From an uncultured cyanobacterium (GTDB lineage: Bacteria > Cyanobacteriota > Cyanobacteriia > PCC-6307 > Cyanobiaceae): DNA of 64,000 nucleotides. Both the position numbers and the translations under genes were made by a program. The notes beneath the pieces are model-generated. The model was not told the DNA's origin, made no database searches, and saw nothing but the letters and a program-made list of their open reading frames with translations. Of this stretch, positions 1 through 9,273 are shown piece after piece (the stretch's first letter is position 1; every line of letters starts with the position of its first letter). Where the stretch lies: assembly GCA_963697335.1 (NCBI GenBank), contig CAVONQ010000005.1:1-64000 (forward strand), in the 5' to 3' direction.

Positions 1-57
1 GGAACCTCTGAAAAACCCGCTAAAATCAATCCAGATCCAAGACTGAGACTGGAACGG

Positions 58-1041
58 ATGGCCGACCCCCTCCAGCTGGGCTTTACGGACTACGAGCAGA
101 TCTACGCCAAAAAGAGGACGCGTCGCCAGCGCTTCTTGGATGAGATGGAGGCCACGGTTCCCTGGGAAGCGTTTCTGGCCTTGATCGAGCCCGTGTATCA
201 CAAGCCGTCCAGCAAGGGAGGTCGTCCGCCGATTCCTTTGGAGGTGATGCTGCGGATCCACCTGCTGCAGCAGTGGTTCACGCTTTCAGATCCCTTGATG
301 GAGGAGATGCTGATCGATACGCCCTGCTTCCGCCGCTTCGCAGGAATCGAGACGATGGAAGGCCGGATCCCTGATGAGACCACGATTCTCAACTTCCGCC
401 ATCTGCTGGAAGAGCACCGCATCGCCGAGCAGATCCTTGAGGGTGTGAACCAGATGCTGAGCGAGAAAGGAGTGATGCTGAGGGAAGGCACGATCCTTGA
501 TGCCACGATCATCAATGCCCCCAGCTCCACCAAGAACAAGCGCAAGGAGAGGGATCCTGAAATGCACTCGGTGGCCAAGGGCAAGCAGTGGTTCTTTGGG
601 ATGCGCTGCCACATCGGCGTTGATGCCGCATCTGGCCTGGTCCACTCTGTGGTGAGCACCGCAGCCAACGTGCATGAGCTGAACACAGCAGCTGACCGGC
701 TCCATGGGGATGAACGCCTCATCTACGGCGATGCTGGCCACATCGGCATCGAGAAACGAAACGACTTCCAGGACTGCGAGGCTGAGTTCAGGATTGCCAT
801 GAAGCCCGGCCAGCGCAGAGTTCTTCCAGAGACACCAGAGGGCAGGCTTCTGGATCTGATTGAGACGGCGAAAGCCCACTTCCGCGCCAAAGTGGAGCAT
901 CCCTTTCGGATCATCAAATGTCAGTTCGGCTTCCGGAAGGTCTTCTACCGAGGCATCCGCAAGAACGACCTCAAGCTGAAGTTGCTCTTTGCCCTGGCAA
1001 ACCTCTGGATGGTACGGGAGCGAATACCTGATCCAGCGTAA
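58..1041 (+). CDS. IS5-family DDE transposase
   Basis: KRTRRQRFLDEM..VPW, GRPP..LEVMLRIHLLQQWF, IPDETTILNFRHLLE, DATII, YGDAG, RAKVEHPFRIIKCQFG motifs. Confidence 0.95.
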   Translation: MADPLQLGFTDYEQIYAKKRTRRQRFLDEMEATVPWEAFLALIEPVYHKPSSKGGRPPIPLEVMLRIHLLQQWFTLSDPLMEEMLIDTPCFRRFAGIETMEGRIPDETTILNFRHLLEEHRIAEQILEGVNQMLSEKGVMLREGTILDATIINAPSSTKNKRKERDPEMHSVAKGKQWFFGMRCHIGVDAASGLVHSVVSTAANVHELNTAADRLHGDERLIYGDAGHIGIEKRNDFQDCEAEFRIAMKPGQRRVLPETPEGRLLDLIETAKAHFRAKVEHPFRIIKCQFGFRKVFYRGIRKNDLKLKLLFALANLWMVRERIPDPA

Positions 1042-1172
1042 TAGCAAGGGTTTAGTGTGTCTCAAAGGTCGATAATCATCCAGAAATCAAGGCAAAATGC
1101 ATGGTGGAAACTGCCTGAACGTCTTTGCAAGGACTGCTGTGAGTGAAAAGCGGGCAAAATCTGCTCAGTATC

Positions 1173-1204
1173 GTCTCATTGACGAGAATGAGACTAGGTT
1201 TTTT
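1173..1204 (+). terminator. Candidate intrinsic terminator inside the IS right end
   Basis: GTCTCATT-gacgag-AATGAGAC 8-bp hairpin followed by TAGGTTTTTT. Confidence 0.4.
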
Positions 1205-1282
1205 GGATTAAGCCGTCTTGATCAGAGGTTCCTTTAAACCTATTGATTATCCTTTTTCCATAAAGCTTCATCGCATCCGTTG

Positions 1283-1295
1283 CCGTCATTCGCAT
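1283..1295 (+). promoter_or_regulatory. 13-bp motif CCGTCATTCGCAT, copy 1 (candidate operator)
   Basis: Identical to 4153-4165; both begin 73 nt upstream of an ATGAGT start. Confidence 0.55.
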
Positions 1296-1355
1296 GGGTG
1301 AAGAGCATAGTTGCGTGGCCGGTTCGATGCTCTGCTCCAGCGACCCACGCCTGCC

Positions 1356-1613
1356 ATGAGTAGTACCATCTGCCTCGACCACATCCTCGCCGCCGCCATG
1401 CCCTTTGATGACGTGTTCGACAGCGAGGCGCTCAGGCACGACGCGCGTGTTGAGCCCCTGCCAATCTGGGCGCACTGCGGGCGACGCCTTGACTTGCAGG
1501 CCCGTACCCTCACCTGGCAGGTACTGAGCTTGCGCGCTGTGGTCGATGACGCCCATTCCACCTGGGCTGGCTGGGATGATGGCGCCTGGGACAAAGGTAT
1601 TGAGCAGCTCTGA
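1356..1613 (+). CDS. Small acidic, Trp-rich hypothetical protein (85 aa)
   Basis: ATG at 1356 within ORF 1311-1613; co-oriented 27 nt upstream of the kinase-WYL genes. Confidence 0.55.
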   Translation: MSSTICLDHILAAAMPFDDVFDSEALRHDARVEPLPIWAHCGRRLDLQARTLTWQVLSLRAVVDDAHSTWAGWDDGAWDKGIEQL

Positions 1614-1640
1614 GCTGCCCTGATCATCCGGGAGTCGACC

Positions 1641-3080
1641 ATGGTCCCACCGACGCTGCGCTGTCACCTGCTGATCGGTCCGCCCGCCAGCGGCAAGACC
1701 TCTCTGGCGGCGGTGTTGGCCGAGCTGGTGGGGGGCCAAGTGCTTTCCACTGATGGAATCCGCGCCGAGCTGTACGGCGATGCTGCAATCCAGGGGAGCT
1801 GGTCAGACGTGGAGGCCCAGTATCACGTCCGCATCCGCACGGCGGTGGCAGAAGGGATCCCGATCATTCTCGATGCCACCCACGGTCTGCGCCCCTGGCG
1901 TCTGGCGATCACCCAGGCGTTGCAGTTGCCTGCACCAGTGCAATGGATCGGCTGGTGGCTCACCACACCGCTGGAGCAATGTCTGATCTGGAATCGGGGG
2001 CGAGATCGCCAGGTGGCTGCAGCTGTGATCGAGCGCATTCACGGATACCTGCCGGCGGCCACCTACGTGCCGGATCCAATCTTCCTCAGGAAGCTGAATG
2101 CAGATCCTTCCCAGCGTGCTGAGAAGCTGGCGAACCAAGCCAGGGTTTTCCTCGACAAACAGAGCCGGTCCTTCCGCGAGGAAGGATTTGCCTATCTCGC
2201 CGCCCTGAACCCGGCCTCCATCACGGATCTCACGTCGTACTGCCGTGCTGTGCTGAGCGACATAAATCGCAGCATCCAGGCAGCCTTCAATCGAAGGCAA
2301 AGGATCGTGCTGCACCGCTACTCGCGCCTGCTGGATCTGGAGCGGCTGCTCTATATGATCCGCCTGCTGCTCGAATACCCGGGCCTGGAGTTCTACTTCC
2401 ACACGCAGGATCTTCCCCTCGAATGCAGGGAGGAGGTGGCCCAGCTGCGCCAGAGTTTTCGCTTTCAGCGCGATGCCCCCTTACCGGTACCAGATCAGGC
2501 GACCTTTGCCGTGCGTGCCGCTTTCGCCCTCGCCCATCGCCATGGGCCCTGTTTCGGCGATGTGGACGCCATTGAACAAGATCTGGACTGGCTCTGGAAT
2601 CAGGGATTCACGTCCGCCTTCACTGAATCACGTGTTGTCGATCCAGGGGCTGCCGCGGCGCAGGTCCGAGAGGCCATGGATGCCGGGGCGGGCTTCCCAC
2701 AGGCGGCTGATCGACCCATCTTTCAGCGCCAGCTCGGATTGCTGCGTTATCTCATTCAGAATCCCTTCGATGCGCCGGATGACAACAGCAACCTCGACCC
2801 TGATCTCCGCCTGGATGGCCGCAGGCTTACCAGAACCAACTCCCAAAGCCTTGATACCCAACAAGCCACTGCCAGCGCGCCAAGACGGAGGGCGCAGCGA
2901 CAGACCGTCTCACTGCGTCTACACCTGTTGGAGAGACTCCGGCAGATCTACCCAACCGGTGAGAAAGAGCAGAAGCTGAATAAACAGCAGCTCAGCACCC
3001 TAGACAAGGACATTGAGCTCCTGATCACCGGGTACGGATTCCGGAATCTCCTAAGCAGCGGCTCCTCCAACCAACCTTGA
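1641..3080 (+). CDS. AAA_33/polynucleotide-kinase-like P-loop domain plus probable wHTH region; N-terminal part of a kinase-WYL regulator
   Basis: GPPASGKT P-loop, STDGIRAELYGD, DATH, NRGRDRQV lid-like motif; later YSRLLDLERLLYMIRLL and STLDKDIELL helices; GGGAG upstream of ATG. Confidence 0.8.
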   Translation: MVPPTLRCHLLIGPPASGKTSLAAVLAELVGGQVLSTDGIRAELYGDAAIQGSWSDVEAQYHVRIRTAVAEGIPIILDATHGLRPWRLAITQALQLPAPVQWIGWWLTTPLEQCLIWNRGRDRQVAAAVIERIHGYLPAATYVPDPIFLRKLNADPSQRAEKLANQARVFLDKQSRSFREEGFAYLAALNPASITDLTSYCRAVLSDINRSIQAAFNRRQRIVLHRYSRLLDLERLLYMIRLLLEYPGLEFYFHTQDLPLECREEVAQLRQSFRFQRDAPLPVPDQATFAVRAAFALAHRHGPCFGDVDAIEQDLDWLWNQGFTSAFTESRVVDPGAAAAQVREAMDAGAGFPQAADRPIFQRQLGLLRYLIQNPFDAPDDNSNLDPDLRLDGRRLTRTNSQSLDTQQATASAPRRRAQRQTVSLRLHLLERLRQIYPTGEKEQKLNKQQLSTLDKDIELLITGYGFRNLLSSGSSNQP

Positions 3081-3089
3081 TGCCCAATC

Positions 3090-4148
3090 ATGCCAGCAGC
3101 TGATCGTTCATACAAGCCCAGGGATAAATTCCGCGGTTTCGGCCTCGGAACGGCAATCCTCACCGCCCAGCAGCTCAAGGACGTACATACCAGGCTCAAC
3201 CAGGCCTTCAGCCGCCTCAACGATCCCACCGTAACCGGTCTGCAGGAAGCATTGAAAAGCCGGTTGGAGATGGCTGGGATCGATGTGGAGAACCTCGTGC
3301 CGCTGCGCGCCTTTGCTAATCGGTCCATCATTGAGCACGACAAGACATTCGAGAACAACCAGACACTCGTCAATGAGTCCCATCTCAGGCGAGTGGAAAG
3401 GGCGATTCTCGAACGCAAGCAGGTGTGGCTCAAGGTGCCCGATCCAAAGGGCAAGGGCAAGGGCAAGGAGATCCTGGTCTGGCCGCTGCAGATCCTTTTC
3501 CACAACATTGCCTGGTATCTGGCCTATGAATCGGCGCAGGTGGGTTCACTTCTCACGGTCACCAGACTGGACCGCATTCAGCTGGTCAATGCCGGGCTTC
3601 CCCAGCAGAGAAGTCTGGCTGAGATGCGGAAATCTCAGCAACGGCTGGAGCATCTCTGTCGCCGCACCGGCGGTATCTTTCTTGGCGATGACCACCACCA
3701 GCAAGCCAAGCTGGCCGTCGAAGATCTCAGCGAGAACCGAGTCCAACAATTGCTTCGTGAGGGCACGTTGGTCACGGTGCACTTCCACTGCTCTGCGCGT
3801 ATCTATGCGTTCATCCGTTCAGGCAACAAACGCTACCCACCCGCACAGATGCGACTCTCAGGCCCGCTGCCCACTGATGACTGGAAGGTGAATGTCACAG
3901 GCACTTCGCTGTTGCTTCCCGATCCCATCAACACCGCTCATCCATATCCAGTGGAGATCATTCTGCCTGCCTGGACTGTGGAGAGCAACGACTTCTGCAG
4001 CTGGTTGTTCGGTTTCGGCGGCGAACTCAAAATCGAAGCTCCTGATGCACTGCGGGTGAAGCATCGCGCCTATGGCCAGGGGATCGCTGCGCTTTATGAA
4101 ACGCCAGATCACTCTGGTGAGCATTCCGCCGTTGACGCAGCCCCCTAA
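3090..4148 (+). CDS. WYL-domain protein (WYL plus WCX-like C-terminus)
   Basis: VERAILERKQV, VWPLQILFHNIAWYLAYE, RLDRI, and C-terminal WLFGFGGELKIEAPDALR. Confidence 0.88.
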   Translation: MPAADRSYKPRDKFRGFGLGTAILTAQQLKDVHTRLNQAFSRLNDPTVTGLQEALKSRLEMAGIDVENLVPLRAFANRSIIEHDKTFENNQTLVNESHLRRVERAILERKQVWLKVPDPKGKGKGKEILVWPLQILFHNIAWYLAYESAQVGSLLTVTRLDRIQLVNAGLPQQRSLAEMRKSQQRLEHLCRRTGGIFLGDDHHQQAKLAVEDLSENRVQQLLREGTLVTVHFHCSARIYAFIRSGNKRYPPAQMRLSGPLPTDDWKVNVTGTSLLLPDPINTAHPYPVEIILPAWTVESNDFCSWLFGFGGELKIEAPDALRVKHRAYGQGIAALYETPDHSGEHSAVDAAP

Positions 4149-4152
4149 GCTC

Positions 4153-4165
4153 CCGTCATTCGCAT
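4153..4165 (+). promoter_or_regulatory. 13-bp motif CCGTCATTCGCAT, copy 2 (candidate operator)
   Basis: Exact direct repeat of 1283-1295; imperfect inverted copy ATGCGGGATGCGG at 4182-4194. Confidence 0.55.
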
Positions 4166-4225
4166 AGAAAGAGGGGCCTTGATGCGGGATGCGGCGAGGA
4201 TGTGTTCACCCGCAAAGCGATCCCG

Positions 4226-4696
4226 ATGAGTTACACCTCCAATCCCGAGCCCAGCGATGCCAATGCCTCTGCTCAGTGCAGCGGCCGGTACCGGTACTGC
4301 GCTGGCAGACCGCTTGATCCCAGCGAGGGCCTCCACCCCGAATTCCACGCCGATGCCGCCCCGGCGAGGCAGGAGAGCGGCGTTCCCGACAGCCCCGCCG
4401 CTCTGATCGCCATGCAGGACAGGTCCAATGCCCCCCGCCCCGATGAGCCCGAACGGAAACCCAGTGCCAAGGTCGAGCAGGTGCTTGAGCTTCTTGATCG
4501 GCTGGAGACCGGCGCAGCCGAGGGTCTCGATCTGGTGCAGAGGCTTGTGCGCAAGCTGGAGCACTACCACGACCGCGTAGTGGAGGAGATGTGCGATGAC
4601 GAAGAGGCCAGCCACAGCCAGCTGATCGCCTGGTCCATCGATGCCGATCGGCTGATGCGCAGCCGATTGTTGCTGGAGTCAGTTGAACTGGAATAG
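4226..4696 (+). CDS. Hypothetical protein with acidic helical C-terminal domain
   Basis: ORF 4202-4696, likely ATG at 4226; amphipathic helices, LIAWSIDADRL motif. Confidence 0.65.
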   Translation: MSYTSNPEPSDANASAQCSGRYRYCAGRPLDPSEGLHPEFHADAAPARQESGVPDSPAALIAMQDRSNAPRPDEPERKPSAKVEQVLELLDRLETGAAEGLDLVQRLVRKLEHYHDRVVEEMCDDEEASHSQLIAWSIDADRLMRSRLLLESVELE

Positions 4697-5084
4697 AGCA
4701 TTCAACTGACAGTGATCTGAGCAAAGGCAAATCGGATTATCTCTTCTATGTCCAGATGACTAGAGAGGGAATGTTGCTTGACTTGCTTCGTCACAACTTG
4801 CTTCTTTGGGATAGTGCGCCAGCATACGGCTGCTCTGCCTGAGGTGATTCGCATTGGCAAAACTACCCTGAATCGCCAATACGCGCACTACAAGTCCATC
4901 TCATTGGAATAGCCCGCTATCGCTTCGCATTGCACTCCTGACAGAGAAGGTGATATACATAGTCTTTGTGGTATGATTATGGAGCTCCCGGCGAATCAGA
5001 AAGGTGGCCAGTCGCAGAAGCTGCCTACACATAAGACGTGCGGCTTTTGATCCAAATTGTGCGCGTATCAGGGATCAAGGCGGG

Positions 5085-5414
5085 ATGGACCCTGAGGCTT
5101 TTGGACATCTGGTTGGCCAGGCAATAGTCTATACACTTGCATTGCTCCTACTCGGTGTATTGCTTTGGGGAATGTGGATCCTGGTCCTTTGGGCGGCACC
5201 AAAGACAATCGCCTTAATTGCGGCAGCAGGGGCCTGGACCTATCGGGCAATCGTCTATACACTTAGGCTTGCTCTGGGCATTGGCGTCGTTTCAGTCGTC
5301 ATCTGGCTCCTCTTCAGGCTCTCAACCGTAACAACGCACCTTGGTCCCCGTGGTGGCCGGTTCAGGATTCGCCATTCACGGAAGAGTGGCAAAAAGTATA
5401 AGCAATACTTCTAG
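5085..5414 (+). CDS. Hypothetical small membrane protein with internal AIVYTL repeat
   Basis: Hydrophobic segments, basic C-tail, low-GC context; ATG at 5085. Confidence 0.45.
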   Translation: MDPEAFGHLVGQAIVYTLALLLLGVLLWGMWILVLWAAPKTIALIAAAGAWTYRAIVYTLRLALGIGVVSVVIWLLFRLSTVTTHLGPRGGRFRIRHSRKSGKKYKQYF

Positions 5415-5821
5415 ATAGAATCCTCGCCAACACCGAGATGTTCGATGCTTTTGGTGATCTGATGCGTCCAGTGACTGCTGGCCCTGTGCGACCTTGACAC
5501 GGTCCATAAGTGCATTTTACTATTCTAGTCTTGGGATTTTTAGTGAAAGCCATTGTTCCCGGGAAATGATGGGGTAGATCGTACTGGTTGCTGTTTGCGT
5601 TTCATAATGTGTAGCATCAGTCCATGGCCCAACTAGTCTCGAATTTCAGATCTATGCGCCTGCTCTGCTCCCTGAGGTAGGTGCTGCCTCAGCAGATTGG
5701 TAGCGACAGAGCCTTCGGAGTATGACGCCAATTAATGTATGTCACTAACCAGGTCCCCGCCCCACCCCGCCGGCGACTGGAAGCTTTGAAAACTAATGGT
5801 CCCGCCAGCTTGTTTGCTCCG

Positions 5822-6518
5822 ATGACCGGCCAGCTCGGCTTCTTTGACCCCTCCCCCAGCGATACTCCACATCTGCAGGAGTTACCTGGCCTCGCCCTGC
5901 GCTACTGGCCCAGCTGGGCCGGCCCCGAGGCCGACGGCTGGATGGAACAGCCTGCGGCGTGACGTGCCCTGGAAGCAGGACTCCATCACCCTCTTCGGCC
6001 GCACCCACCCCGTGCCCCGCCTCACCTGCTGGATGGGAGATCCCGGCTGTTCCTACACCTACAGCGGTGTTGCCAACCCGATCGAGCCCTGGTCGCCCCT
6101 GCTCCAGCAGCTTCGAGAGCGGCTGCAGACCGCGGCGGGCTGCAGCTTCAACTCCCTGCTGCTGAACCGCTACCGCGATGGTCGCGACGCGATGGGCTGG
6201 CATGCCGATGACGAGCCGGAGCTCGATCCCCGGGCACCGATCGCGTCCCTGAGCTTCGGGGCTCCCCGCAGCTTCCGGCTCAAGCCCAGGGCCCCTGGCC
6301 TCAATCAAGCCAAGCCGCTGGTCTACGAGCTGGGCCATGGCGACTTGCTGGTGATGGATCCCCCCACCCAGGAGCACTGGCTGCACCAGGTGCCCCGGCG
6401 CCTGCGGCTGCGGCAGGAACGCATCAACCTCACGTTCCGTCGGATCCGTTCAGCGGCTCCACCGCCGTGGCCGCCGTGGAGCGACCGGGATCGAGCAGGG
6501 CTTCAAGGGCTTCGCTGA
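5822..6518 (+). CDS. alkB: AlkB-like 2OG-Fe(II) dioxygenase, frameshifted near 5951
   Basis: VPRLTCWMGD, FNSLLLNRYRDGRDAMGWHADDE, IASLSFGA, HQVP, RINLTFR; N-terminus (ATG 5822) is in another frame and joins if one C at 5951-5952 is removed. Confidence 0.85.
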
Positions 6519-9273
6519 GGCTGGCCTCCATCGCAATCCGGGAGCTGTCGCTCACCACCACCCTGGTGAGGGTGGGCAGGCCGCCGGCCCGGGCCTGCAG
6601 GTACACCGGCTCCACATAGAGCAGACCTTCGCCGATCGGCACCACCAGCAGATTGCCCTGAATCACCTTGGAGCCGGCCCGGTCCCAGAGGCCGAACTGC
6701 TGGCTGATGCGGGGGTTCTGGTTGATCAGGGCCTGCACCTGCTCCGGCCCGTAGATCGGCAGCTGGCTGGGGAAGCGCAGCAGGGTGAGTTTGCCGTAGT
6801 GGGGCGCGTCGCTGCGGGCCGCCAGCCAGCCCACCAGGTTGGGTCGGGCCAGGGGGGTGAGGGGCTGCAGCAGCAGAAACTCAGGCTCCTTCTCGCCAGG
6901 CAGCTGGGCACTGGCGTGGAAGGGCTCCACCCGCACCTGCTCCTCGCCGTAGAGCTCCTTGGGCACCTGCCACACGTCGTCGCCGCTGTAGAAGATGCGC
7001 GGATCGGTCACGTGGTAGCGGAGCAGCTGGGTGGTCTGCACCTCGAACTGCCAGCGGGGATACATGATGTGCTCCCGGATCGCCGCCGGCATCGCCGTGA
7101 TCGGCTGGAACAGTTCCGGAAACAGCTTCTGCCAGCTGCGGATCAGCGGGTCGTCGGGCTCCGCCACGTAGAGCACCATCTGGCCGGTGAAGGCATCCAC
7201 CACCGCCTTCACCGCATTGCGGGCGTAGCGCAGTTCAGGCCGGCCCGGCACGGCGGCGCTGTAGGGATAGAAGGCACTGGTGGTGAAGCCATCCACAATC
7301 CAGTACTGGTGCTGATCAGCGCTGAACGGTGGTGAGCCATCCACCTGAACCGACACCAGGTAGGGGTCGGCTTCAAAGCGCACGAAGGGTGCCGCCGCCC
7401 GCAGCCGGTCGCGCACCTCGCGGTGCAGCAGCAGGCGGGTGTCGCTGGTGAGTTCACCGCCCACCAGCAGCTTGGGCTCCCCCAGATAGATCGCCGCCGC
7501 CAGCCGCTGCCAGCCCTGGGCCAGGGGCACCCCGGCACCGCCGCTGTAGTGGAGGTAGAAGTTCTCGTCGCCTTGGGGATAGTTGAACTCCTGCACCGCC
7601 GTCGGCGCCAGCGCGTAGGGGGAGGGCAGGGCGCCGAAGTAGAGGAAGGGGTCCCGGGTGGGCACCACCTGCTGCACATCGGCCTTGGTGATGCCCAGCT
7701 GGCTGTTGCCCTCCACCTTGGTGGAGGGGCCCAGATCGGAGATGAAGAAGTCGGGCAGGCCCTCGGGGCCGCTGGTGTTCACCGGCGAGAGCGTGAAGCC
7801 GTTGCCGTGGGTGAACACCAGGTGACGGTTCAGCCAGGTGCGGGCGGTGCTGGGCAGGGCGCCCTGGTCGAGTTCCCGGGCCGCCATGAACACCTGCTGG
7901 CGTCCCTGGCCCCCCTGGGAGCGCAGCCGGTAGCGATCCACCACCGGCTCCGAAAAGCGGTAGTACACCCGCAGCTGCTGCAGCTGGCGGTTGGTGGCCA
8001 GCAGCGGCTCACTGTCCCAGAGGCGCACATTGCTGAGGGTGGCCTCGCCGGCAGCGAGGTCCTGGCGCGTGAGACGGGCTCTAGGCACCCGATCCACGAT
8101 CGTCATGCCGTCGAGCTGGAAGGCCCGGCGGGTGGCATCGATCGAGCGGGCCAGGTAGGGCAACTCCCGCTCCAGCTCCTGGGGGTTCACCAGCAGGTTC
8201 TGGAGCAGGGGGCTGAGCAGCCCATCGGCCAGGGGCAGCAGGGGCAGCAGCAGCGCCAGGGCCAGGGCCAGCGGCGCCCGCCGTCCCTCCTGGGGCAGGG
8301 GCAGCAGCAGCACCACCGCCAGCAGCAGGGCCACCAGGGCGGCGGCGGTGCGCAGGGGCAGGGCCAGATGCACATCCAGCCAGCCGGCGCCGGGCACGCT
8401 GCCGGTGGTGCTGAGCAAAAGCTGGTGACGGGCCAGCCAGAAGGCCAGGGCGATCAGCAGCGCCAGCAGGGCCAGGGGCGCCCGCAGGGCCAGCAGCTGG
8501 GCCGGGCTGAAGCCGGCAAAGCGACCATCACTGAGCTGGGAGCCCCGCGCCAGCAGGCCCCAGAGCGCCAGGCAGAGGCTGGCCAGCACCAGCGCCAGGG
8601 CCAGGGTGAGCGCCAGGGCCAGGGCGGGGAAGCGCAGCAGCACGAAGCTCACATCGGCGCCCAGCAGCGGCTCACGGATGCCGCTGGGCTCAGCCACCAT
8701 CGCCAGGCTCCAGAAGCCCCAACCCCGCCCCAGCACCAGGGCCAGCCCGAGCCCGAGGGCACCGTGCAGCAGCCGCGCCCCAGCCTCGGGCCGGAAGCCC
8801 AGCAGCACCGCGGCCACCACCGCCACCAGCAGCAGCGGGCCGGGGCTGAGCCCCGCCAGGCCGATCAGGCCGTGCAGGCGCTGCGGGTCGAAGGGCTGAA
8901 AGGCCAGCCGGGCCGCCAGACCCCAGACCAGGGCCAGGGGCAGCAGGGCGCCCGCCAGCAGGGCGGCCAGCAGCAGGCCGTAGGGGAGCGTCGGCAGGGC
9001 CAGGCGCCCCCTGGCCGCACTGGGCAGGCTCCAGAACCACAGCAGCCAGCCCTGCAGCAGGGCCGTGAGGCCGAGGCCCAGGCCCAGGCCGAGCAGCTGC
9101 AGGCCCCAGCGGCGCAGCAGCACCGAATCGAGCGAGAACTGGGAGAACCAGCTCCACTCCACCCAGAGCCGGGCCGCCAGCACCGCAGACAGGCAGGCGG
9201 CCAGGAGCAGCAACGGCAGGCCGATCCTCCAGGGGATGGCCACGCGGGGCGCTGGGCGGTGGGAACGGGTCAC
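6430..9273 (-). CDS. UPF0182 family membrane protein
   Basis: N-terminal TM helices, NVRLWD, HLVFTHGNG, YWIVDGFTTS..YPYS, YARNAVKAVVDA, LLYVEPVYLQA. Confidence 0.92.
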   Translation of the reverse strand: MTRSHRPAPRVAIPWRIGLPLLLLAACLSAVLAARLWVEWSWFSQFSLDSVLLRRWGLQLLGLGLGLGLTALLQGWLLWFWSLPSAARGRLALPTLPYGLLLAALLAGALLPLALVWGLAARLAFQPFDPQRLHGLIGLAGLSPGPLLLVAVVAAVLLGFRPEAGARLLHGALGLGLALVLGRGWGFWSLAMVAEPSGIREPLLGADVSFVLLRFPALALALTLALALVLASLCLALWGLLARGSQLSDGRFAGFSPAQLLALRAPLALLALLIALAFWLARHQLLLSTTGSVPGAGWLDVHLALPLRTAAALVALLLAVVLLLPLPQEGRRAPLALALALLLPLLPLADGLLSPLLQNLLVNPQELERELPYLARSIDATRRAFQLDGMTIVDRVPRARLTRQDLAAGEATLSNVRLWDSEPLLATNRQLQQLRVYYRFSEPVVDRYRLRSQGGQGRQQVFMAARELDQGALPSTARTWLNRHLVFTHGNGFTLSPVNTSGPEGLPDFFISDLGPSTKVEGNSQLGITKADVQQVVPTRDPFLYFGALPSPYALAPTAVQEFNYPQGDENFYLHYSGGAGVPLAQGWQRLAAAIYLGEPKLLVGGELTSDTRLLLHREVRDRLRAAAPFVRFEADPYLVSVQVDGSPPFSADQHQYWIVDGFTTSAFYPYSAAVPGRPELRYARNAVKAVVDAFTGQMVLYVAEPDDPLIRSWQKLFPELFQPITAMPAAIREHIMYPRWQFEVQTTQLLRYHVTDPRIFYSGDDVWQVPKELYGEEQVRVEPFHASAQLPGEKEPEFLLLQPLTPLARPNLVGWLAARSDAPHYGKLTLLRFPSQLPIYGPEQVQALINQNPRISQQFGLWDRAGSKVIQGNLLVVPIGEGLLYVEPVYLQARAGGLPTLTRVVVSDSSRIAMEASLSEALEALLDPGRSTAATAVEPLNGSDGT

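Follow-up and report, generated by a model that had tools for sequence, protein, structure and literature searches.

A single stop codon between two open reading frames that share one frame can be read in several ways: as a base-calling error, as the mark of a gene in decay, as a site of recoding or as a genuine division of one gene into two. The locus studied here, which lies in a stretch of 64,000 nucleotides from an uncultured cyanobacterium of the Cyanobiaceae (hereafter the window), raises exactly this question. Two ORFs, both starting with ATG, occupy the same reading frame: the first (1641-3080, + strand, 479 residues; the N half) carries an AAA_33/Pnk-like P-loop kinase domain followed by two helical HTH-like modules, and the second (3090-4148, + strand, 352 residues; the C half) carries a wing/linker remnant, two linker helices, a WYL domain and a WCX region. 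The junction reads AAC CAA CCT TGA TGC CCA ATC ATG, that is, a single stop (3078-3080, + strand) and a 9-nt spacer (TGCCCAATC, 3081-3089, + strand), and both coordinates and letters agree with the sequence-only reading that had first described two halves separated by one TGA. According to the ORF list, neither half contains any further stop or frameshift. Our analysis indicates that the in-frame stop is real, being neither a sequence error nor the sign of a dead gene, and that the locus probably represents a picocyanobacterial regulator family, otherwise single-chain, in a two-gene form that is fixed and functional.

The first matter to be settled is whether the stop exists at all. The only point in favour of a base-call or assembly error is that the search of sequencing runs did not turn up the source's own reads (the best run contains 0.08 of the sampled words, and no RNA run is listed). 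Against it, the identical TGA stands at the homologous place both in Synechococcus sp. BA-132, an independent isolate (L013), and in L019, a contig from a metagenome. Additionally, metagenome contigs of relatives with about 87-90% identity, coming from 4 runs in 4 further studies, bridge positions 3078-3080 without gaps and, among the differences listed, which leave out 175 more, show changes at 3077, 3081 and 3087 and none at 3078-3080. These observations contradict an error, the probability of which we consider practically negligible.

Relatives split at the same point, which the earlier reading had proposed to look for, do exist. Of the best 120 BLASTP matches obtained with the read-through product as query, 22 consist of the N half alone (479-536 residues, 49-85% identity), all of them ending directly past GYGF(RN/TT), and the fused matches comprise two proteins of 820 residues and 94 of about 690-790 residues. 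Stand-alone C halves have 326-392 residues (43-86% identity), and split relatives reach down to about 46% identity. In the fused relatives of about 690-790 residues the linker is 8-9 residues long (e.g., RSRNDNVRH), so that the earlier description of homologues as unsplit chains, joined by a linker of lesser length, is correct for most of the family. Junction DNA was compared across the window and 21 loci related to it, which together comprise 17 split and 5 fused cases. The split-form loci are few and related, and hence the following counts of junction types do not represent independent events: the C half is in frame in three of the 17 (the window and its two closest relatives, L013 and L019) and in the +1 frame in the other 14, 11 of which have a 14-nt ATG...TGA overlap, with the remaining three showing gaps of +4, +7 or +13 (two of these ending in TAG or TAA). 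The two halves are directly adjacent in all 17 split loci, overlapping by 14 nt in most, and an ATG for the C half is found at every one of the 17 junctions.

These junctions bear directly on the possibility that the UGA is read through or recoded (as tryptophan or selenocysteine), with a fused protein of 835 residues and 92 kDa as the functional product. In favour of this, UGA tends to be the leakiest of the stops, one UGA and 9 nt are all that separates the in-frame ORFs, and the two closest relatives have an identical arrangement. Nevertheless, with 14 of the 17 split junctions out of frame (two of them with TAA or TAG), read-through cannot be the mechanism of the family. The spacer, moreover, lacks conservation at the protein level (CPI in the window, STV in L013, RKV in L019), whereas the ATG is conserved; the genome has no SelB over the curated cut-off (best 201 bits versus 242), and the RNA 3' of the stop folds no better than its shuffles (z 0.67) and shows no unusual structure. 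Read-through and selenoprotein genes are characterized by a conserved in-frame UGA together with recoding machinery or a recoding signal, neither of which is found here, given that the UGA is in frame in 3/17 junctions. Read-through is thus contradicted, and we regard it as very improbable. A programmed +1 frameshift was also considered for the relatives with the 14-nt overlap and was rejected, since no common slippery motif could be recognized by eye and the ATG is conserved throughout. In these comparisons the in-frame TGA with its 9-nt spacer, found in the window and its two closest relatives, is a later and incidental state, and the pattern of +1 frame and 14-nt overlap suggests an original frameshift, after which an ATG within the loop was put to use.

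The age of the split was addressed with a tree of the N-half region (39 sequences), obtained by a quick search only and with the outgroup on a very long branch, in which all 23 split rows fall into a single clade (SH-aLRT 96) whose sister is the pair of fused 820-residue proteins P0007 and P0008 (support 99), so that one change of state is needed. On this topology, the fission is a single event in the ancestor of the clade, inside a loop already expanded in the fused sister group. Measured against L013, dN/dS is 0.30 in the N half and 0.16 in the C half, which indicates that both are under purifying selection. A recent nonsense mutation leading to a decaying pseudogene could be argued from the mostly fused state of the wider family and from the position of the locus within an island adjoining an IS element, but the same split persists down to the most distant split relatives, which belong to one clade, relatives at 81-87% identity have the same TGA, and dN/dS of 0.16-0.30 extends over both halves, with no extra stops or frameshifts; we therefore hold decay to be extremely improbable. 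Instead of intact close homologues and relaxed selection, the combination that would point to a simple pseudogene, the nearest relatives are split and both halves are constrained. Natural gene fission, one of the options of the sequence-only reading, is strongly supported by the clade-wide split, the purifying selection on both halves and the conserved ATG of each. The locus serves as a worked example in which an apparent nonsense mutation is an old, selected fission, the shared frame being a coincidence of one sub-lineage. Within the genus, a census of 32 species representatives found the split form in one, the source genome itself, where the match lies in a 355-residue open frame; 16 other genomes contribute 27 matches, all in longer frames (563-1117 residues).

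The N-terminal part of the first protein (residues ~1-215; 1641-2285, + strand) matches AAA_33 (PF13671, E 7.7e-16) and phrog_505, a polynucleotide kinase (E 4.3e-5). When the read-through product was compared as a single sequence with solved structures, only P-loop noise appeared (RuvB, E above 0.1), and the match to Pnkp among solved structures required the family profile, which aligns with the Clostridium thermocellum Pnkp kinase (4gp6) with E 1.3e-7, pairing the P-loop, the S-[ST]-D-x-x-R motif, the D-A-T and the R-x-R lid. Across the 23 split N halves, K19, D38, R41, D78, R121 and R123 do not vary, and in the alignment they fall on the equivalent motifs of 4gp6; following the Pnk literature, we take the P-loop lysine, the general-base aspartate and the arginine of S-x-D-x-x-R, and the lid arginines to have their usual catalytic roles. 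In structural comparisons (VIA) performed on the model of a fused relative, 50% identical overall (BLASTP), the top match for residues ~8-213 is 4gp6_A (Z 19.4, rmsd 2.6, 164 aligned). T4 Pnk follows with Z 16, and small-molecule kinases, adenylate kinase among them, score Z 13-15. In Foldseek, the models of fused relatives match the C. thermocellum polynucleotide kinase with TMt 0.66-0.75. The earlier guess of a Pnk-like kinase is thereby borne out by both the AAA_33 match and the best structural match. As judged from models and alignments, the domain shares with the C. thermocellum Pnkp and T4 Pnk kinases the P-loop kinase fold and the type of catalytic residues. In contrast to these enzymes, the family has no phosphatase, no ligase/adenylyltransferase module and no Hen1 partner, and its kinase domain is joined to a transcription-regulator scaffold (here, linked through the N half).

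The break falls after the second of the HTH-like modules (residues ~358-467; 2712-3041, + strand), formed by the helices IFQRQLGLLRYLIQNP, LRLHLLERL and LSTLDKDIELLITGY; a basic insert, predicted to be disordered, separates the first helix from the second. These helices were mapped by alignment onto the AF2 models of two fused relatives (pLDDT 77 and 85), at residues 363-378, 439-448 and 459-473 of P0007 and 315-330, 341-349 and 361-372 of P0065, and in both models they occur in the right order. When canonical cyanobacterial HTH-WYL-WCX regulators are aligned with the fused family by hhalign (E 2.6e-5, 269 columns, Prob 74.6%), the alignment reaches helices 2 and 3 of this module and the wing position: at the break, with low per-column confidence, SERTVRNDLSFLRDRLNA pairs with the helix before it and NRRRGY with R-H-G-Y/R-G-F just after it. 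The same regulators give no alignment with the N half alone (Prob 0.24%), and a second alignment, onto the first HTH-like module, is not significant (Prob 0.19%). Pfam HTH models match none of the family members tried, and AF2 places no beta hairpin at the break, which is modelled as coil (pLDDT <50 at P0007 472-509 and 58-78 at P0065 373-396). There is thus moderate support for a break at the position of the wing in DriD/PafBC-type regulators, directly past helix 3 of an HTH-like module. The earlier placement between a recognition-helix-like and a wing-like segment is plausible, with moderate support: hhalign favours it, and the AF2 coil and the lack of Pfam HTH matches speak against it.

The first conserved element past the break is GFGLGTAIL (C-half residues 16-24; 3135-3161, + strand), in which 7 of 9 positions are invariant (G16, F17, G18, G20, A22, I23 and L24). 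Both for the fused family and for the C half alone, hhalign matches its LGTAIL to TLGARML, a linker-helix motif in canonical WYL regulators, so that the alignment partner of GLGTAIL is a linker helix rather than a wing strand. Further on lies the WYL domain (C-half residues 98-164; 3381-3581, + strand), which exceeds the cut-off of PF13280 (E 9.8e-5, 22.7 bits versus 21.8), as the earlier assignment of a WYL domain to the second ORF had anticipated, and which also matches the PADLOC WYL model PDLC01652 when the whole C half is searched (E 1.1e-16). It contains a literal W142-Y143-L144, invariant along with R159, D161 and R162, and its strands have high pLDDT in the models of fused relatives. 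The WCX match has its core at C-half residues 299-330 (3984-4079, + strand) and remains below the PF25583 cut-off (E 7.5e-4, 20.2 bits versus 23.9); relatives score 21-27 bits, with P0117 (26.6 bits) above that cut-off, and the hhalign and Foldseek alignments extend to the C terminus.

Taken as a whole, the family runs from a Pnk-like P-loop domain through a pair of helical HTH-like modules and linker helices to the WYL sensor domain and a putative WCX domain. Outside the kinase, the models of the fused relatives are matched best by DriD, the Caulobacter WYL activator (PDB 8tp8, 7tzv), with which the family would share the order HTH, linker helices, WYL and C-terminal extension. Foldseek aligns the two fused models with full-length DriD with E 2.8e-8 and 4.3e-8 (about 400-412 aligned columns against a 324-residue chain), and these alignments are about 170 columns longer than those to the DriD C-domain alone; the VIA second-look list was filled by kinases and gave no residue ranges for DriD. 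The sequence identity is 15-18%. DriD itself consists of one chain (~325 residues) and has no kinase, whereas the family adds the N-terminal Pnk-like kinase and an extra helical module, has a long disordered insert in its HTH-like module and, in the split clade, has the chain broken at the wing position. PafBC, the actinobacterial DNA-damage regulator (PDB 6sj9, 9fnd, 7p5x), is a WYL/WCX regulator (Foldseek E 2.3e-7 and 5.6e-8) with no kinase, and it provides a precedent for one regulator existing as two genes or as one: according to the PDB entries, the mycobacterial PafB and PafC chains have 330 and 317 residues and the Arthrobacter protein is a single chain of 642. The boundary between PafB and PafC, however, separates two complete HTH-WYL-WCX protomers, whereas in the present family it falls inside one protomer, next to or within the putative DNA-binding module. 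The canonical cyanobacterial regulators (~325 residues; L041-L044) align through residues 23-325 with residues 340-708 of the fused family, and with the C half alone at hhalign E 4.4e-4. Their wHTH is clear and compact, they are neither split nor joined to a kinase, and about 22 of their residues past the wing (HYTDSNWRLPSIALSKGELFAL) have no counterpart in the kinase-WYL family. Our literature searches found no fusion of a Pnk-like kinase with a WYL regulator, nor is such a fusion among the WYL fusions given in the available portion of the 2014 WYL/CARF survey (PMC4012209). The locus points to a family joining a polynucleotide-kinase-like domain with a DriD/PafBC-like WYL regulator, and because nature has already interrupted the chain at the margin of the putative DNA-binding module, it lends itself to asking which parts of WYL regulators need covalent linkage.

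DriD is activated by ssDNA bound to its WYL domain, and the titles of its PDB entries mention ssDNA. By analogy with DriD and PafBC, both of which sense ssDNA, the WYL/WCX subunit may sense a nucleic-acid-derived ligand, and the N subunit would supply the helices that bind DNA together with a polynucleotide-kinase-like activity on 5'-OH ends. Translation of the C half would start at its own initiation site, coupled to termination of the N half, and the two proteins would act together, possibly with reassembly of the DNA-binding domain in trans and in response to broken nucleic-acid ends, as the sequence-only reading had conjectured. Alternatively, the halves may have been functionally independent since the fission, co-regulated without forming one DNA-binding unit, the N half acting as a kinase that brings helical modules of its own for binding DNA or RNA and the C half as an HTH-less WYL/WCX ligand binder resembling accessory WYL proteins. 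The flexible coil modelled at the break segment would suit such independence, as would the occurrence in other cyanobacteria of the kinase module as a stand-alone frame of 180-199 residues and of lone C-half-like proteins of 389-426 residues, and the existence of a lineage (G005:C61) split at a different place, after the kinase. It is opposed by the direct adjacency of the halves, mostly overlapping, in every split locus and by the presence of the conserved GFGLGTAIL immediately past the break, contiguous with the preceding helix in fused relatives, and we consider it unlikely. A complex prediction for N-half residues 220-479 with the C half gave 0.00 and 0.01 against a mark of 0.32 and counts neither way. 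Returning to halves that act together, a bolder version, which we put forward as quite speculative, is that fission has produced a ligand-gated, two-piece DNA-binding device and that the whole family may consist of undescribed regulators that sense and phosphorylate 5'-OH ends. The sensor subunit has the invariant GFGLGTAIL wing/linker and the kinase-HTH subunit lacks it, so that a complete DNA-binding module would form only upon association.

The two halves belong to a conserved four-gene cassette, composed of a small upstream ORF, the N half, the C half and a downstream ORF. Strains that carry it include Synechococcus sp. BA-132 and Cyanobium sp. FGCU-52. The upstream ORF (1356-1613, + strand, 85 residues, from ATG 1356 to the TGA at 1611-1613) has 51-80% identity at 12 loci (tblastn), with HMM matches at 12 loci; it occurs only beside split-form genes, with no HMM match in the fused-form loci L002-L012. 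Its dN/dS relative to L013 is 0.22, and its relatives form 21 protein clusters, none with a Pfam domain. The earlier remark that its sharing the frame of the N half might be chance was correct, since over 11 relatives' loci and the window the frame is the same in 5 and different in 6. The downstream ORF (4202-4696, + strand; 164 residues from GTG 4202 or 156 from ATG 4226) has 45-83% identity at 13 loci (tblastn), HMM matches at 13 loci, weak HMM matches just 3' of two distant fused forms and a dN/dS of 0.19 relative to L013. For both ORFs, nothing significant was found in Pfam, NCBIfam, PADLOC or PHROGs, and the hits to BsaP (E 0.049) and FliX (E 0.047) were treated as noise. In the ESM Atlas, the downstream ORF has no usable match and the upstream one matches unnamed clusters only (0.89-0.93).

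The cassette lies in a low-GC island (1-5800; GC 0.574 versus 0.706 for 6000-64000) that abuts the contig end, since the window comprises contig positions 1-64000. Directly upstream of the cassette is an IS5-type DDE transposase ORF (58-1041, + strand, 327 residues; DDE_Tnp_1 E 2.3e-23, DUF772 E 9.7e-21), and a consensus scan places a terminator-like hairpin with a T tract between the two (1173-1204, + strand). An AlkB-like gene (5844-6518) and an ORF at 5004-5414 stand beside the cassette in the window and have no tblastn match in any related locus. Horizontal movement of the cassette is suggested by its GC, which stays constant while the hosts differ, by the adjoining IS element and by its being unique within the genus. 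The Pnk-like-kinase-WYL family also occurs in multiple copies in island regions (at the very GC-rich paralogue loci, ORFs were scanned with Pfam), beside SNase homologues and a MazF-like toxin, which leave 5'-OH ends.

The two open reading frames that encode the kinase and WYL parts of this regulator lie on the forward strand and both start with ATG. The N half (1641-3080, 479 residues) and the C half (3090-4148, 352 residues) share one frame and are separated by a TGA (3078-3080) and nine further nucleotides (TGCCCAATC). The N half matches AAA_33 (Pfam, E 7.7e-16), and the C half matches WYL at 22.7 bits (barely above the 21.8 cut-off), WCX at 20.2 bits (under the cut-off) and the PADLOC model for CRISPR-associated WYL proteins (E 1.1e-16). 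Since these coordinates and domain matches agree with it, the sequence-only reading described the pair accurately, including the shared frame, and the gene pair split by an in-frame TGA is a real feature. That reading had offered gene fission, UGA read-through, a recent nonsense mutation or a base-call error as explanations, and the relatives allow a choice among them.

The read-through product (with the TGA as X) was compared with 5.8 billion proteins (8000 candidates scored, 362 hits), and the best 120 of the 362 hits were examined. Among these, 22 are N-half-only proteins (479-536 aa, 49-85% BLASTP identity), all of which stop a few residues past the GYGF motif, an end point confirmed by alignment. 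The whole query is spanned by P0007 (820 aa, 50% identity) and P0008 (819 aa, 49%), as well as by 94 proteins of ~690-790 aa with ~38% identity; P0022 and P0101 are partial hits. The C half gave 70 hits, among them free-standing proteins 351-352 aa long (81-86% identity) and a series of 326-392 aa in which identity falls gradually to 43%. Several N-half and C-half proteins lie on contigs of equal length (e.g. P0020 and P0143 of Cyanobium sp. FGCU-52, 12,804-bp contig). Natural gene fission is therefore the explanation that holds, with relatives split at the same point. Both halves are under purifying selection, with dN/dS (Nei-Gojobori, against the closest genome locus, L013 of Synechococcus sp. 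BA-132) of 0.30 (N half) and 0.16 (C half); a recent nonsense mutation is excluded by these values and by a split common to many relatives.

We read the junction in the window, in six related loci from species genomes and in 15 from metagenomes, which gave, with the window counted, 17 split junctions and five fused genes (Lyngbya L018, L029-L031, L033). The in-frame arrangement, with one TGA and a 9-nt gap, occurs in three loci (the window, L013 and L019), which form a sub-clade with at least 84% identity and in which the spacer, read as protein (CPI, STV, RKV), is unconserved. In 11 loci (L014-L017, L022-L027, L032) the C half is in the +1 frame with a 14-nt overlap (ATGnnnnnnnnnTGA), and in the other three (L020, L021, L028) it is in the +1 frame after a gap of +7, +13 or +4, with TGA, TAA and TAG as stops. 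The two-gene arrangement is thus conserved, with stop and start at most 14 nt apart, and so is the C-half start, its ATG lying ~14-22 codons ahead of an invariant GFGLG in 17/17 split loci. The 14-nt overlap is shared by the split group that branches first and by the FGCU-52 lineage, and is therefore likely the ancestral junction, the in-frame state being derived; judged from these junctions, the shared frame of the halves is a coincidence. In the window, an ATG in the +1 frame (3079-3081) overlaps the TGA and opens a 7-codon frame (3079-3102) that itself ends in TGA; it looks like the relatives' ATG...TGA overlap and could be vestigial or fortuitous.

The same comparison bears on read-through, which is excluded by halves that are mostly out of frame in relatives; additionally, no SelB in the genome exceeds the curated cut-off and the RNA 3' of the stop shows no excess of structure over shuffled sequence (z 0.67), so recoding is neither needed nor supported. 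Nor is the stop an error: relatives' contigs (~87-90% identical, from four runs of four studies) cross the site without gaps and differ at 3077, 3081 and 3087, with no change at 3078-3080 among the differences listed (175 more lie beyond these), and L013 and L019 carry the same in-frame TGA. The source's own reads were not found among the sequencing runs searched, the best of which held 0.08 of the sampled words.

A maximum-likelihood tree (quick search only) of 39 N-half regions (23 split, 15 fused and a Lyngbya outgroup on a very long branch; the fused P0023, P0107 and P0117 were left out, their cut point not being matched by motif) places all split forms in a single clade (SH-aLRT 96), with the fused pair P0007/P0008 as its sister group (99). 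A single change of state is enough to explain this pattern, which points to one old fission. The linker between YGF and G-x-x-L-G has 8-9 residues in the ~700-aa family and in Lyngbya and ~30 in the fused P0007, and therefore the loop was already enlarged before the break. Every out-of-frame junction is +1, which fits a single frameshift; in such a scheme the loop would have expanded in a fused ancestor and a +1 frameshift within it would have split the gene.

AlphaFold2 models of P0007 (pLDDT 77) and of another fused relative, P0065 (pLDDT 84.6), were each built from a 96-sequence alignment. Both show a kinase domain (~residues 1-215), two helical modules, two long linker helices, a beta-rich WYL and a mixed WCX domain. 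Their best Foldseek hits are DriD, matched over its full length (E 3e-8 and 4e-8; 400-412 columns), PafBC and the C. thermocellum polynucleotide kinase, so that the modelled fused relatives combine a DriD/PafBC-like and a Pnk-like fold. By alignment, the break immediately follows helix 459-473 in P0007 and helix 361-372 in P0065, in a coil (472-509, pLDDT below 50, and 373-396, pLDDT 58-78, respectively). The earlier proposal that the stop separates recognition-helix-like and wing-like segments is plausible but not established. In its favour, four canonical cyanobacterial HTH-WYL-WCX proteins align with the fused family (profile-profile E 2.6e-5, Prob 74.6%, 269 columns), pairing, with low per-column confidence in this N-terminal stretch, helix 2 with PEHLIAQLE, the recognition helix SERTVRNDLSFLRDRLNA with EAATLRKDLEKLLTPYGF and the wing PLACNRRRGY with RSRNDNVRHGY, and further on the TLGARML linker motif with AIGTALL; taken by itself, the C half aligns from residue 9 on (E 4.4e-4). 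However, the N half alone gives no alignment to the canonical profile, and no Pfam HTH model matches the window ORFs or the relatives tried. We would place the break where a divergent wHTH has its wing.

In the model of a fused relative that is 50% identical overall, the kinase aligns with 4gp6_A (VIA-align Z 19.4, rmsd 2.6, 164 aligned), followed by T4 Pnk (Z 16) and adenylate and other kinases (Z 13-15). At sequence level, the family profile hits the Pnkp kinase of 4gp6 (E 1.3e-7), with alignment of the P-loop and of the S-[ST]-D-x-x-R, D-A-T and R-x-R-Q-V motifs, and the N half matches phrog_505, polynucleotide kinase (E 4.3e-5). In the N half these motifs correspond to K19, D38, R41, D78, R121 and R123, invariant in 23/23 split N halves, whose catalytic roles we take to be those of the Pnk literature. 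The N half is thus a putative 5'-OH polynucleotide kinase. Translation of the C half would be coupled to that of the N half and the two proteins would associate, the helical modules binding DNA, the kinase phosphorylating 5'-OH ends and the WYL domain sensing a ligand; in DriD and PafBC that ligand is ssDNA. A full-text literature search (WYL with kinase, polynucleotide kinase or AAA_33) found no paper on a kinase-WYL fusion among those listed. WYL fusions set out by Makarova et al. 2014 (PMC4012209), to which its Supplementary File 6 may add more, involve Cas3, exoRNase, Mrr, HNH, SF1 helicase, AbiGII nucleotidyltransferase, BRCT and TerB; none of these is a P-loop kinase. The main interest lies in this regulator family and in its long-lived break, apparently at the edge of the DNA-binding module, and not in the shared frame.

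The pair is flanked by an upstream ORF (1356-1613, forward, 85 aa, dN/dS 0.22), present with the split pair in 12 related loci, and a downstream ORF (4202/4226-4696, forward, 156-164 aa, dN/dS 0.19), present in 13; neither matches a family in Pfam, NCBIfam, PADLOC, PHROGs or the ESM Atlas. The upstream ORF is 67-79% identical in loci whose C halves are ~46% identical, exceeding the conservation of the regulator halves, and among the loci searched it accompanies split forms only; a functional partnership with the pair is probable. Searches next to the fused paralogues L002-L012 recovered neither ORF, and weak downstream-ORF hits adjoin two distant fused forms. One metagenome-assembled locus (L017) has two copies of the downstream-ORF family (6083-6715, reverse, and 4093-4695, forward).

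Bases 1-5800, with an IS5-type transposase (58-1041, forward), the cassette and an unconserved ORF (5004-5414, 136 aa), have a GC of 0.574 against 0.706 in the rest of the window, and look like a horizontally acquired island ending at the contig break. Cassette GC is 0.58-0.62 across hosts whose flanks range from ~0.41 to 0.72. Across 32 species representatives of the genus, the split form occurs only in the source genome (open frame of 355 aa), which has no second copy of the kinase-WYL gene; in 16 other genomes, the 27 matches fall within frames 563-1117 aa long. Together with the cassette association, these data suggest horizontal acquisition of the cassette. Just beyond the island edge lies an AlkB-like 2OG-Fe(II) oxygenase gene (5844-6518, PF13532, E 3.9e-38), which is not conserved beside the cassette in other loci.

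Fused paralogues exist in multiple copies (as many as seven places in genome G015 and four in G013), and the four neighbourhoods scanned hold island-type genes: SNase homologues and AbrB-like regulators in two of the four, a PemK/MazF-like toxin with an SNF2 helicase in one, and a DUF4062-NACHT-TPR protein in one. The 5'-OH ends that SNase and MazF produce would be fitting substrates for a Pnk-like kinase. Two fused paralogues of one complete genome (L037 4378-5583 and L038 4159-5925) each have an SNase homologue and an AbrB-like regulator as neighbours; the toxin and the helicase are also close to one of the two. G015 carries two near-identical fused paralogues (C38:2528-3523 and C39:2555-3526) each reported to contain a single in-frame stop within the C-half match, TAG and TGA respectively; the junction itself is fused in L005. 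Another natural split of the family occurs in genome G005 (C61:17353-19501), with the kinase in its own 195-aa frame and the remainder in a 608-aa frame, and stand-alone kinase-like frames of 180-199 aa are present in other cyanobacterial genera. Finally, a split cassette of typical picocyanobacterial kind (46% identity) lies on a 212-kb contig (L016) whose record names a Chitinophaga pinensis MAG; the label or the binning looks wrong.
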